Below are positions 6,726 through 13,904 of a stretch of DNA of 64,000 nt, piece by piece. Below the pieces are notes generated by a model. The model saw only the letters and a list, made by a program, of their open reading frames with translations. It did no database searches and was not told the origin of the DNA. The position numbers and the translations under genes were made by a program. This DNA is from a virus, in IMG/VR virus record IMGVR_UViG_3300048672_000851, positions 1 to 64,000 of that record; one strand, written 5' to 3'. How positions within the stretch are numbered: the first letter of the stretch is position 1; the number at the start of each line of letters is the position of its first letter.

Positions 6726-7652
6726 ATGGACATTAAGCGTTTAAAACAAGAAGTGTTAGAAGACATGTACTCTAGAACCAATAACAAATTGAGAATACTC
6801 AAGGAGATAGAAGGTTCAGAAGAACTCTTAGAACACATTGATAAAGTAACGTTAGAGGTTATTAACTGGCTTAAAGAACCAGCTAGTTATACTTCATTAA
6901 ATATCCTTAAAGAACGTATGGTGAAGTATAAGCCAGATGATATTAAGGAACTGATTATCGAGGTGTTTAGCGTGGTTCTGTTTGATAATAGAGCCAAGAC
7001 TATTCAACAGGTAGCTGGTGCTGGCATACCATTCTTTGCTGATACATTTCTACCATTTGATGCTGTGAAAATTACAGCAGAAATAGTGGGTATTATGTGC
7101 TCATTGGATTTAGTTGATGTTATTCCAGCAATGGAAGGACAGACTGAATATACAATGGTGCAAACTGATTATGAATTGACTCAAGATATTATTGATAAGA
7201 TTCATGAAACTAAGTATATGCCACCAATGATTGTGAAACCAAATCATGTAAGAAAGGTTAAAGATAATGCTTATCTAACCTTTAAATCTAACATGATTCT
7301 AGGAGATAAACACAATCAACATGATATGGGTATTAGCTTGGATGTAGTTAACATTCAAAATAGTATCCCATTACGATTAAATGAGTTTGTACTTGGATTA
7401 AGAGAGGAATCCAGCAAACCATTAGATACACCTGAGAAGATTCATAACTTCACACGTATGACTTCTGCTAGTCGGGATGTTTATAACTTGATTATGGAAA
7501 CAGGTAATGTTTTCTACAATACACATGCATTTGATATGCGTGGAAGATTGTATAGTCAAGGTTATTATGTCCATATTCAATCAACTGAATACAAGAAAGC
7601 TCTGATAGATTTCTACTATCAAGAGGTAATTACACACGAAATTGAGGAATAA
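6726..7652 (+). CDS. RNA polymerase II subunit 1 (N4 gp15-like)
   Basis: YMPPMIVKP and FDMRGRLYSQGY (DxRGR) motifs. Confidence 0.9.
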   Translation: MDIKRLKQEVLEDMYSRTNNKLRILKEIEGSEELLEHIDKVTLEVINWLKEPASYTSLNILKERMVKYKPDDIKELIIEVFSVVLFDNRAKTIQQVAGAGIPFFADTFLPFDAVKITAEIVGIMCSLDLVDVIPAMEGQTEYTMVQTDYELTQDIIDKIHETKYMPPMIVKPNHVRKVKDNAYLTFKSNMILGDKHNQHDMGISLDVVNIQNSIPLRLNEFVLGLREESSKPLDTPEKIHNFTRMTSASRDVYNLIMETGNVFYNTHAFDMRGRLYSQGYYVHIQSTEYKKALIDFYYQEVITHEIEE

Positions 7653-7656
7653 AGTG

Positions 7657-8646
7657 ATGCAATTATTTAGCGGTATTGATTACATTAAGATTGCTGTAGC
7701 AAATGCTTATGGTTTAGACCGTGAGAACTGGGATGTACGATTAGATTGGTTTGACCGTCATATCAATCATTTACCAGCTATGATACCTACAGCAAAAGAA
7801 CCAATTAAATATCAGAAGGCATTAAAGGCATTTGATGATGCTTTGAATTACCGTCCTACTGGTTATTTAATGGAATTAGACGCAACTGCGTCTGGTTTAC
7901 AAGTATTTGCTGCATTAACTGGCTGTCATGATACGGCTCGCAATACAAACTTACTACCTAACTACGACAGGCTATGTCCTTACAACAGCACAGCATTAGC
8001 AATGTCTGCGCTAAGTAATAAAACATTTAGCCGAGATGAAGTTAAGAAACCATTAATGACGGTGTTCTATGGGAGTAAAGAACAACCTAAATTAATATTT
8101 GGTGATGGTACAGATGAATTAAATGCTTTCTATGGTGCATTAAACCAAGAGTTTAAAGGTGCAGTAGAAGCATTGGCTGATATTCAAAGCTGTTGGCAAC
8201 CAGACCAAGATTACCATTCATGGACATTACCTGATGGCCATGTTGCTTATGTTCCTGTTCGTGTTGATGAAACCAAAATCATTGAAGTGGATACACTAGG
8301 TGGTTTGAAGTTTACTCAATCTGCAACTGTAGTGGCTCCAAGTGAATCAGGCATATCACTGGCTGCAAATATCGTTCACTCTGTGGATGGTTACGTATGT
8401 CGTGAAATGATTCGTCGTTGCTATGCCGAGAACTTTCGTATTCTAACTGTTCACGATGCATTCTTTGCATCTCCGAATAAGATGAATCGTGTTCGCTTTC
8501 ACTACAAGGAAATCTTGGCCGAGATTGCAGAATCCAATTTGTTATCTGAAATCTTGTCCGAAATCTGTGATGAACCTCTTGAGTTCACAAAGTTTAGTCT
8601 GGATTTAGGTTCTGCTATCCGTGAATCCAACTATGCCCTGTCATAA
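7657..8646 (+). CDS. RNA polymerase II subunit 2 (N4 gp16-like)
   Basis: LDATASGLQ (motif A), RDEVKKPLMTVFYG (motif B), ANIVHSVDG, VHDAF (motif C), C-terminal YALS. Confidence 0.95.
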   Translation: MQLFSGIDYIKIAVANAYGLDRENWDVRLDWFDRHINHLPAMIPTAKEPIKYQKALKAFDDALNYRPTGYLMELDATASGLQVFAALTGCHDTARNTNLLPNYDRLCPYNSTALAMSALSNKTFSRDEVKKPLMTVFYGSKEQPKLIFGDGTDELNAFYGALNQEFKGAVEALADIQSCWQPDQDYHSWTLPDGHVAYVPVRVDETKIIEVDTLGGLKFTQSATVVAPSESGISLAANIVHSVDGYVCREMIRRCYAENFRILTVHDAFFASPNKMNRVRFHYKEILAEIAESNLLSEILSEICDEPLEFTKFSLDLGSAIRESNYALS

Positions 8647-8719: not shown

Positions 8720-8831
8720 CCTAAATGGACTCTAAAGGGGTATAGAAAAAAACCTAAATCCCAAGTCAAACAAAGATAGTGATTTGGCTAAATTCAACCC
8801 AAACACTAACAACTCCCATGAGGAACCCAAA

Positions 8832-9266
8832 ATGTTCGGATCATTCTTTAAAAAAGCTAACCGCACTATTGAAGCGGTAAAGAAATTTGAAAACAAAGAT
8901 CTGGTTGAAGCTACCGTTGCCAGTGCGTTACTGATTGCTGCTGCTGATGGCACTATCGAAGATGAAGAAGTTGCCAAGCTGCAAGAAATCATCGAAGCAT
9001 TACCAGCAATGCAAGGCCACCAAGCAGAAATCGGTAACATTGTTGACCGTTACACCAAACTGCTGAAAGCTGGCTTTATGCTGGGTAAAGTACAACTGAT
9101 GCGTGAAATCAAAGACTGCAAAGGCAGTGAACAAGAATGTGAAGACATTGTTGTTGTTGCACTGACTGTTGCAAGCGCTGATGGTGAAATGGAAGATGCT
9201 GAAGTAGCTGTTCTGAAAGACATCTGCAAAGCATTGAACGTATCTCCAAGCCAATTTGGTTTGTAA
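8832..9266 (+). CDS. TerB-family protein (P1 TciA-like)
   Basis: Two ADG..E..E repeats (IAAADGTIEDEE, VASADGEMEDAE); start re-called to ATG 8832 after GAGGA. Confidence 0.9.
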   Translation: MFGSFFKKANRTIEAVKKFENKDLVEATVASALLIAAADGTIEDEEVAKLQEIIEALPAMQGHQAEIGNIVDRYTKLLKAGFMLGKVQLMREIKDCKGSEQECEDIVVVALTVASADGEMEDAEVAVLKDICKALNVSPSQFGL

Positions 9267-9268
9267 TC

Positions 9269-9454
9269 ATGTTACGCGAAGTGCGTTTACTGTTAGCAGC
9301 TTTATTGCTGATCTTGTCAGTGCTGGTTGACTCAACATTGTACATCATGTCATTTGCTACTGACCTTGTGTTTGTAGTGTTGACAGGCTTGGTTCTATGG
9401 CCTATTTTGAAGCCGAACCAAAAAGAATCATCAACCGATGATAAATCCAATTAA
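9269..9454 (+). CDS. Small two-helix membrane protein (P1 TciB-like)
   Basis: LSVLVD..MSFATD..LVLWP pattern; directly follows the TerB gene. Confidence 0.65.
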   Translation: MLREVRLLLAALLLILSVLVDSTLYIMSFATDLVFVVLTGLVLWPILKPNQKESSTDDKSN

Positions 9455-9732: not shown

Positions 9733-10960
9733 TTAGCTCTATTCCGAATTGAGCTAGGATAAGATAAAATTACGCCGCATTCTGCGTTTTATTGTTAGTT
9801 TCTTTTTGAACTAACAAGGGTAAGTGGAGACTAGTTCTCCACTAACTCCATTAAAAAGCTTATTAGTTAAGTTCCCATTTTCTCTTGGGTTCCTCAGCTT
9901 AGTTAGTAAGCTTTTTAATGGGGTTTGGTTTCTCCATATTAAAATGGTGTGCTAGTAAATAATGCTAATCCATGCTTTATCGTAAGATAAAGAAGCCGAA
10001 GCTTAGGGAATTTTCATTTATTCACTTAAGACGTTGAAAGGTCGGTAATAATTATTTACAGATTAAGATAGCTACCTCCTTGGTTATGCTTAATCCGTTG
10101 GTTACTACGCTAGTGTAACTAAACTGGATGTAGTGGTTGTGTTTATGGCTTGCAACTAGGGGTAAGCACAATCACTCAGTTTATTAGCTTGGTGTTTCGA
10201 CATTTTGATTAAATAAACGTATGTGCTCATAACTCATAAAGGTTGTTTAGTTAACTTGTTCCGCCAATACTGGTCGGTTATGGGTCTGGTAGAAACACCA
10301 AGACTAATGAGCTGGTAACTCAGAGTGGGTATTAAGGGAATCCCACAATTCGTCAATGTTTGCGATGATAGTTGCATTTAAATATAAATGCTAACGATGA
10401 TATGTTCCGCGCTGTAGCCTAAGAAACTACTCGCCCAAGATAGTAACTTGGTTTAAAAGATAACTCGAAGTCCATCGTTAACGGACACTTAGTTTATTGG
10501 TTTGGTGTTTGGTACCCGACGAAAAGTACACTCGTTGCGGTCGAAGCGGCCAGACACCAAAACCAATAAGCTGATAGCTTAACCGAGCAAATGCTAGAGA
10601 TTATTCTGGCCAACGGTTGTAGGTGACGATGGGTGATATTGGAACCTTCATTTTAGTTTATTGAAGTTGGTTTATAGTTGTAAGAGACTTTGCGGCACCC
10701 TCTGCGTAAAAATCCTATAAATCAACTTCAATAAGCTGAAGGTACAAGTGGTGATTGTACGGAATTTACCTATCGTGTGTGATGAAGCGCCTGTGACCTT
10801 GGTGACAAGGGGATCAGTGACAGGTAGGCGGCCTATAAGCCGGGCAATAACGCCTTAATGTCGTCATCTGGAAAACTCGTAGAATGGCGGTTATATCGCT
10901 ACGAATGAAACACACAAGCCACATAAACTCACCAGTGGCCAGCTTATCTAATCAGAGAAT
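9733..10960 (+). ncRNA. Cluster of structured non-coding RNAs
   Basis: No credible ORF for 1.2 kb; four 22-30 bp stems and many short hairpins; mismatches are mostly G-U compatible on + strand. Confidence 0.75.
10350..10434 (+). ncRNA. tmRNA-like mRNA-like domain (PK1 + tag frame ANDDMFRAVA* + H5)
   Basis: Pseudoknot TCGTC/GATGA + AATGT/GCATT, then ATAAAT|GCT AAC GAT GAT...GCT GTA GCC TAA with the stop in a GTAG/CTAC hairpin loop. Confidence 0.7.
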
Positions 10961-12701: not shown

Positions 12702-12776
12702 GCGCCTATAGTGTAATGGATAGCACACAATCCTTCTAAGTTTGGAGTAAAGGTTCGATTCCTTTTAGGCGTGCCA
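12702..12776 (+). tRNA. tRNA-Arg(TCT)
   Basis: Acceptor GCGCCTA/TAGGCGT, D arm GTGT/GCAC, loop CT-TCT-AA, GGTTCGATTCC T arm, encoded CCA. Confidence 0.93.
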
Positions 12777-13756: not shown

Positions 13757-13858
13757 CCTTTTGTCCTAGGGAGCGAGTAACTACATTAAGCATAAGTTAT
13801 GCATTGTTACTTGGATAGGGAGTATCTCCCATCCTCTCCCTCTTTTATTCCTGCACAA

Positions 13859-13891
13859 AGCCAGTTAGTTAATTCTAACTGGTTTTTTTTT
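13859..13891 (+). terminator. Rho-independent terminator
   Basis: AGCCAGTTAG/CTAACTGGTT plus T run. Confidence 0.8.
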
Positions 13892-13904
13892 AGCTGAGGT
13901 TTAT

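Follow-up and report, generated by a model that had tools for sequence, protein, structure and literature searches.

Transfer-messenger RNA (tmRNA) is universal in bacteria and is not known to act except as a single molecule, or a pair of base-paired pieces, in which a tRNA-like part is joined to a message part. In the recognition of ssrA tags, SspB reads the AANDxx[Y/F] part and ClpX reads the C-terminal LAA. Phage tmRNAs occur in ~2.3% of phage genomes, often as two-piece forms in aquatic phages (PMC9004378), and mycobacteriophage DS6A carries a tRNA-domain-only tmRNA remnant that has been discussed as an inhibitor (PMC4131195). Here we describe a tmRNA-like tag module from the IMG/VR record IMGVR_UViG_3300048672_000851 (77,494 bp), whose first 64 kb constitute the window analyzed, and which is an N4-like podovirus (Schitoviridae). 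Like DS6A, this phage retains half of a tmRNA, and in both interference with host trans-translation is suspected; DS6A is the mirror image in that it retains the tRNA-like half, whereas the window phage retains the message half. Two conclusions are well supported by sequence comparison: that the element is a tmRNA-derived tag module truly devoid of a tRNA-like domain, as a sequence-only reading of the window had proposed, and that its RNA belongs, as a divergent member, to a large family of phage "tag RNAs" that has gone unannotated. With a probability of roughly 0.6, we take this RNA, derived from the message half of tmRNA, to dock on the host tmRNA and to block or rewrite its tagging.

As in one-piece tmRNA (SsrA, RF00023), the tag frame of the window element opens at a GCN resume codon behind an A/U-rich lead-in, encodes a 10-residue tag beginning AND, and reaches its stop codon in the loop of helix 5. 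The frame GCT AAC GAT GAT ATG TTC CGC GCT GTA GCC TAA (10390-10422), the ATAAAT that ends the spacer (10384-89; a tmRNA-type UAUAAAU) and the GTAG/CTAC pairing around the stop codon all lie where they had been read earlier. A local match to RF00023 covers 10379-10434 (model positions 82-140 of 374) and extends from the A-rich lead-in through resume codon and tag to helix 5; its score is low but specific, at 14.1 bits, with an E-value of 0.013 for all families in 6 kb and of 3.9e-5 for RF00023 alone in the whole genome. Both this score and the 19.5 bits reached with the two-piece model RF04321 fall short of the Rfam gathering threshold of 47. The A/U-rich spacer is part of a 17-mer common with true tmRNAs. 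Bacterial genomes totalling 596 Gbp contain the motif ATAAATGCTAACGAYGA(N)A 58 times, and in at least 29 cases it forms the resume region of a tmRNA called by ARAGORN (SAR11, Noviherbaspirillum, Taylorella, candidate-phyla bacteria and Clostridium are represented); among its matches in IMG/VR, 12 of 17 are phage two-piece tmRNAs. Across bacteria and phages, the 17-mer found at the resume codon is characteristic of tmRNA. Relative to the template of a bona fide phage tmRNA (L174, tag ANDEKYALAA), the window tag is of equal length, identical at 23 of 33 nt and likewise provided with a CCUAA loop, and the helix-5 pairs change from GCAG/CUGC to GUAG/CUAC, a compensating change. Exact-pattern scans of IMG/VR for the window's own tag region returned one chance coding match (L003) or nothing. 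Another IMG/VR contig (L271, 912-1298) carries a complete, ARAGORN-called two-piece phage tmRNA with the tag ANDESYALVA, whose ...ALVA end may be intermediate between the LAA and AVA types.

The window differs from one-piece tmRNA in lacking the acceptor stem, T-arm, CCA, G3-U70 pair and pseudoknots PK2-PK4, in a tag that ends in AVA rather than LAA, and in a candidate arm antisense to the tmRNA resume region. With default settings, the only ARAGORN call was tRNA-Arg(TCT) at 12702-12776, and a regular expression for T-arms (5-bp stems around the T-loop), run on the whole 77.5-kb genome, found no credible T-arm besides that of tRNA-Arg. Nor did the 77.5-kb genome contain another acceptor strand or CCA, and no GGGG...UUCGAC 5' strand lies upstream of the tag. 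Neither these searches nor Rfam revealed a tmRNA-type acceptor stem with a G3-U70 pair, a T-arm and a 3' (A)CCA. ARAGORN run with -ps80 does report a "permuted pseudo-tmRNA" with this tag, which we rejected: its AT-rich tRNA halves are not credible, and it stands among dozens of false calls. A G3-U70 pair of the type read by alanyl-tRNA synthetase was likewise rejected, the wobble pair being in the wrong orientation. No complete tmRNA is therefore at hand to account for the module, and the tag frame, as described below, is kept in relatives.

We scanned IMG/VR with a pattern consisting of the resume motif followed after 12-18 nt by GTAGCYTAA. This yielded 54 contigs with AND..LAVA-type tags, in only two of which does ARAGORN call a tmRNA. 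The most frequent tags are ANDEQFLAVA (25), ANDDQFLAVA (9), ANDNVFLAVA (6) and ANDNTFLAVA (5), and further ones include ANDNAYLAVA, ANDNQYLAVA, ANDQTFLAVA, ANDSVYLAAVA and ANDSEMRMVA. One enterobacterial element, that of L262, has counterparts in 219 public phage records, which stem for the most part from phages of Salmonella, Klebsiella and Escherichia and nearly always leave it unannotated (Vi01, HK633, BUCT541 and pYD38-A among them), and also in 895 of 5426 complete E. coli genomes, where phage-plasmids are its usual carriers; on a P1-like plasmid, the tag RNA directly precedes tRNA-Asn and tRNA-Thr. The conserved core of ~200 nt consists of a 5' strand AGUGCUCUU, an arm with AGUUUUCGU, and a tag whose stop codon lies in a small GCC/GGC or GCU/AGC hairpin; AGUGCUCUU can pair with a 3' AAGAGCAYU, with G-U, G-C and A-U variation. 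Synonymous variants (GAA/GAG, TTC/TTT, AAC/AAT, CTG/CTA, GCT/GCA) occur across the family. Compared with 17 distinct templates, the window (ANDDMFRAVA, GUAGCCUAA) conforms to the family tag pattern AND-x-x-[F/Y]-x-A-V-A plus stop (GUAGCYUAA). In the literature we found no match for the tag strings or the 45-nt element, and no paper on the family.

An independent profile test placed the window in this family. R2, a covariance model built from 13 enterobacterial copies only and without the window, matched 10330-10429 with 39.8 bits and an E-value of 1.4e-6, a rough figure as for all purpose-built models. The same model gave 44 bits on L221, the closest N4-like relative of the phage in IMG/VR. 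Among true tmRNAs, R2 scored 26 bits on that of Taylorella, 18-19 on phage two-piece tmRNAs and at most 10 on SAR11, with no match to E. coli ssrA or the Noviherbaspirillum tmRNA. Like the enterobacterial "LAVA" tag RNAs (Vi01, HK633, BUCT541, P1-like plasmids), the window element has a candidate arm, the spacer, an AND..[FY].AVA tag and a stop codon in a loop, lacks a tRNA-like end, and lies in a tRNA or small-RNA island. It is much diverged from them: its tag ends ...FRAVA where theirs end ...FLAVA, its arm lies closer to the tag, and its 3' hairpins are different. The helix AGUGCUC/GAGCAYU that closes the enterobacterial copies has no equivalent in the window, whose module, from a freshwater N4-like phage, stands between long hairpins. 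By these comparisons the family extends beyond enterobacterial phages, and its AVA end is kept over large evolutionary distances.

A tag RNA of this kind is found at the syntenic position of L221, whose RNAP2 is 52% identical to that of the window phage. In the gap after RNAP II, L221 carries UAUAAAU followed by GCA AAU GAU AGC CAA UAU CUA GCA GUA GCU UAA, encoding ANDSQYLAVA*. Tag length and the AVA* end are common to the window, L221 and the 54 AND..[FY]LAVA-type tags of IMG/VR. Codons 8-10, which the search pattern left unconstrained in this comparison, show synonymous third-base differences only between the window and L221. Around the stop codon, the inner GUAG/CUAC pairs are kept and the outer pairs change from GCG/CGC to CUAGC/GCUAG, and a GCGGG/CCCGU hairpin takes the place of the window's GUGGG/CCCAC. 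The order of the RNA elements differs between the two phages, indicating rearrangement in the region.

Two contigs from public runs show how the module varies at closer range. X3 is identical to the window over 10344-10490, after which the stem-3 interior is different. X12 covers 10335-10653 and has four changes within the 154-nt module stretch 10335-10488. Two of them lie in the tag, at codons 4 and 5, where the family varies (D>E and M>T; the tag then reads ANDETFRAVA). The remaining two, 10471 U>C and 10485 A>G, together replace U-A by C-G in the GUCC/GGAC hairpin, a compensatory event. The stem-3 interior of X12, by comparison, has ~13 substitutions and many indels. None of the listed holders of the region is on record as RNA, X12, which is labelled RNA-Seq, being probably DNA; the runs that hold the window sequence are freshwater, sediment and wastewater metagenomes.

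The stretch upstream of the spacer had been read as an H-type pseudoknot equivalent to PK1 of tmRNA. Its strands are in place (TCGTC 10350-54, AATGT 10355-59, GATGA 10364-68, GCATT 10374-78) and the pairing can be drawn, but the segment (10350-10378) folds no better than shuffled sequences (z score -0.23), and no covariation bears on the pairing. Homology with the enterobacterial family explains the stretch better, R2 aligning it with the family arm AGUUUUCGUC..GCGAC. In L262, AGUUUUCGUC is the perfect complement of E. coli K-12 ssrA 96-105 (GACGAAAACU, tag codons 3-6), and the pairing runs on into GUCGCAAACG, where the subsequent CGUUAGCGACU pairs with AGUCGCAAACG. We consider it more likely, from this analysis, that 10347-10369 is an arm antisense to the resume region of proteobacterial tmRNA than that it forms PK1. 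In the window, GUUUGCGAUGAU is complementary to AUCGUCGCAAAC: all 12 of 12 pairs form with the G774 tmRNA (the tmRNA of a bacterial genome in our set), and 11 of 12 with that of E. coli. The best duplex of the arm is with the resume region in both, at -24.1 kcal/mol for E. coli ssrA (z -2.4) and -30.3 kcal/mol for the G774 tmRNA (z -2.7). Such duplexes arise only with tmRNAs of the ...UCGCAAACGACGAA type; with GCU AAC GAU GA-type tmRNAs, like the phage's own template, the arm pairs no better than shuffles. An exact pattern for the arm complement was present in one of 401 genomes (G774), and BLAST of the module against 400 Pseudomonadota-class genomes gave noise-level matches only; two genomes flagged as unpublished (G145, G044) support none of our claims. 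The pairing with these stand-in tmRNAs is suggestive for the window.

We infer from these comparisons docking on the host tmRNA, translation of the frame and the fate of the tagged proteins, as follows. The RNA would be transcribed with the early/middle RNA cluster and probably processed at the flanking long hairpins. Its arm would pair with the tag template of the host tmRNA and mask the host resume codon and first tag codons, and the masked resume codon would block trans-translation, with tagging and rescue. The phage template, tethered beside that of the host, might also let rescued ribosomes resume on it, so that ...AVA is added in place of ...LAA, the ClpXP degron. Lacking an end that can be aminoacylated, the RNA could not enter the ribosome as tmRNA does. 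Docking is the simplest model in that it uses all conserved traits: the arm, the lead-in with the resume codon, and the frame with its A-V-A end. Tags ending in AVA keep the SspB-binding part and alter the ClpX-binding end, which would fit re-tagging to escape or redirect proteolysis. The broader proposition, that phages of many lineages use a tRNA-less RNA paired with host tmRNA to replace the ...LAA signal by ...AVA on rescued proteins, we hold only tentatively. The earlier suggestion of a decoy comes close to this model of interference with tmRNA.

Several observations weigh against docking. In the window, UUCGUC complements GACGAA and a 3-nt bulge separates the two paired parts; the z scores of -2.4 to -2.7 against shuffled arms are modest and refer to stand-in tmRNAs. 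The module fold has weak thermodynamic support (z -1.1). A tag-region model run over 88 N4-like loci (1.02 Mb) matched only the window and L221, so that within N4-like phages the tag RNA is confined to a small clade and is not a general trait. The third-position excess in a family-wide codon count is largely imposed by the search patterns. T-loops near the tag in L221 and in some enterobacterial copies make a tRNA-like partner possible for the family. Finally, the production and processing of the window RNA and the translation of its frame are predictions from sequence.

The same arm would serve a pure antisense inhibitor or sponge of host tmRNA, in which the tag frame is inherited and kept and never translated. 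The complementarity is the best-defined interaction surface of the RNA, and the DS6A remnant (PMC4131195) is a precedent for phage interference. We nevertheless regard this as unlikely: frame, length, stop-in-loop and A-V-A end are kept, with synonymous variants, across very different phages, which would not be expected of an untranslated sequence.

A somewhat poorer case can be made for the coding piece of a two-piece tmRNA, whose tRNA-like acceptor piece would be supplied separately by phage or host to complete a rescue RNA that adds AVA. Aquatic phages often carry permuted two-piece tmRNAs (PMC9004378), and 10272-10422 matches the Rfam permuted model weakly but over its full length (19.5 bits). 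Two-piece tmRNAs (RF04321, RF01850; Melnitz, PMC9004378; L168, L174) share with the window the 17-mer, an upstream CAAYUCGUC, the tag length and a similar stop-codon loop, and are phage-borne and aquatic. They keep both tRNA-like halves, are called by ARAGORN and bear LAA tags, whereas the window has neither half and scores 39.8 bits with R2 against their 18-19. In L221, a T-loop GGUUCGAAUCC followed by ...GCCA lies 245 nt past the tag, and T-loops occur near some enterobacterial copies; against this, both L221 acceptor strands are downstream of the tag, which indicates a separate tRNA-like unit, and the family T-loops lie at variable offsets (92-548 nt) and are missing from most copies. The 77.5-kb genome, with its single tRNA-Arg and no GGGG...UUCGAC upstream of the tag, provides no second piece, and we think it improbable that one is involved.

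The L221 unit spans ~190 nt (7970-8161), with a 7-bp helix AGCUCUG (7970)/CAGAGCU, the T-loop GGUUCGAAUCC and then CAGAGCU-G-CCA, so that the GCCA end is encoded; it has no G3-U70 pair. A structured insert of ~170 nt replaces the D and anticodon arms, and ARAGORN makes no call even when introns are allowed. The window contains no equivalent of this unit. In the enterobacterial copies, a direct repeat CAGUGCUCU flanks the tag RNA (L262 5271-5532 and others), and in some contigs a T-arm GGUUCGAAUCCCUAC immediately precedes CAGUGCUCU, so that the 5' end of the enterobacterial tag RNA may lie within the 3' trailer of a tRNA-like gene. With G-U pairs, AGUGCU is self-complementary.

That the module is a functionless, decaying remnant of a complete phage tmRNA, or a captured ssrA fragment, would agree with the missing tRNA-like domain and with the differing order of RNA elements in the window and L221. 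It is nonetheless very improbable, as the module is near-invariant where the neighboring hairpin cargo is rewritten, includes one compensatory pair, and has its frame intact in L221 and 54 other contigs, in a family found in 219 phage records. Conservation and membership of a large family likewise speak against the mere truncation or leftover that the sequence-only reading had considered, and nothing points to its further idea that the module is excised as a spare part for a cut host tmRNA. Chance resemblance in a structured non-coding region, or a tiny open reading frame or leader peptide of 16 aa (TTG 10372...TAA 10422), could appeal to the Rfam score of 14.1 against 47 bits, the in-frame TTG 18 nt upstream and the many false tmRNAs of relaxed ARAGORN, and is the least credible reading in view of the R2 E-value, the tag kept at the syntenic spot of L221, the absence of a Shine-Dalgarno sequence before TTG, and upstream in-frame codons that are not conserved in L221 or the family.

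Table 1. Features of the tag-RNA module and its flanks (window coordinates).
Feature	Coordinates	Strand	Remarks
Whole tag-RNA module	10315..10488	+	Non-coding; between long hairpins "stem 2" and "stem 3"
5' hairpin GUGGG/CCCAC, loop UAUUAAGGGAAU	10322..10349	+	Self-folding -7.8 kcal/mol, z -1.87
Candidate anti-tmRNA arm UUCGUC - AAU - GUUUGCGAUGAU	10347..10369	+	Overlaps the segment earlier read as PK1; complementarity to AUCGUCGCAAAC GACGAA
A/U-rich spacer UUAAAUAUAAAU	10378..10389	+	Directly before resume codon; fits Rfam tmRNA consensus AAAAAUAAuU before GCa
Tag frame ANDDMFRAVA + UAA	10390..10422	+	Resume codon GCU; no start codon
Stop-in-loop hairpin GCG..GUAG/CUAC..CGC	10409..10434	+	Helix 5 (H5) equivalent; aligned to RF00023 helix 5
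Hairpin CCAAG/CUUGG	10435..10451	+	Present in every predicted fold; no comparative support
Hairpin GUCC/GGAC	10470..10486	+	One compensatory event in X12 variant
Flanking long hairpin "stem 2"	10177..10314	+	Inverted repeats and fold; context, outside tag RNA proper
Flanking long hairpin "stem 3"	10489..10574	+	Context; base kept, interior rewritten in X3 and X12

The module lies in a non-coding gap (9733 to ~10883) that has no credible open reading frame, a higher G+C content than its surroundings and, on folding, a series of long hairpins. The genes around the gap are all on the + strand, as is the tag module. Two RNAP II subunit genes (PHROGs) occupy 6726-8646, and the virion RNA polymerase is encoded by an open reading frame of 3417 aa. 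N4-like relatives of the phage were found by tblastn; relatives of RNAP2 known as proteins (P0002-P0011) are 61-72% identical, and a search with the single RNAP2 protein gave none closer than 38-45% identity in phages, IMG/VR and JGI metagenomes. Promoter and terminator scans gave nothing beyond shuffled background, and the phage genome has no SmpB gene. Directly upstream of the RNA island (8784-9454) lie a DUF3927 gene and a TerB-like gene, the latter by its match to the PHROG "tellurite resistance" (E 1e-44). This linkage is not shared by the P1-like plasmid checked, whose tag RNA has genes for a Dam methylase and an SPFH protein as its neighbors instead.

The gap holds four long hairpins (22-28 bp), stems 2 and 3 of Table 1 together with those at 9844-9925 and 10652-10740. 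Their bases are kept (AGYUUAUU ... AAUAAGCU) and their interiors vary, and they occupy the place that tRNAs take in the arrays of other phages. A hairpin like stem 3 occurs as a single copy in two unrelated viral contigs of higher G+C content, L163 (8726-8810) and L091; stem 4 is homologous to L221 7598-7697, where it stands upstream of the tag. We rejected an interpretation of the flanking stems as attC sites, as the GTTRRRY core is absent. A weak match to the manA RNA motif (RF01745) at 10190-10351 (21.6 bits, E 0.0045 in 1.25 kb) takes in the stem-2 interior and the GUGGG/CCCAC hairpin. Elsewhere in the window, the intergenic stretch 13777-13892 (+ strand) gives a weak full-length match to Qrr, the Vibrio quorum-sensing small RNA (RF00378; 30.7 bits against a gathering score of 50, E 0.012).

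Between stems 3 and 4 lies a conserved element of ~75 nt (10579-10652), composed of GAGCAAA, a variable hairpin with a covarying stem, and CAACGGUUGUAGGUGACGAUGGGUGAUAUYGGAACYUUCA. Its 3' part folds into a hairpin that contains tandem G-A pairs and shows one covariation, from G-C to A-U. The element is present in 16 IMG/VR contigs, Xanthomonas phage JGB6 and Pseudomonas phage HU1, and most copies directly follow the CCA end of a tRNA within a tRNA array. No exact match was found in 596 Gbp of bacterial genomes, none in Rfam at E<=1 and none in the literature. The element may serve in the processing of tRNA trailers, or may be a candidate ribozyme.

The window extends the tag-RNA family, which the standard annotators ARAGORN and Rfam miss, by a diverged member from a freshwater N4-like phage; a relative in synteny, data on variants and a profile test made independently come with it. 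If docking is correct, a conserved message-only derivative of tmRNA aimed at the host tmRNA, and carried by hundreds of phages, would be a new form of viral takeover of translation quality control. If re-tagging also holds, the phage would rewrite, and not merely block, the fate of proteins made from broken messages.

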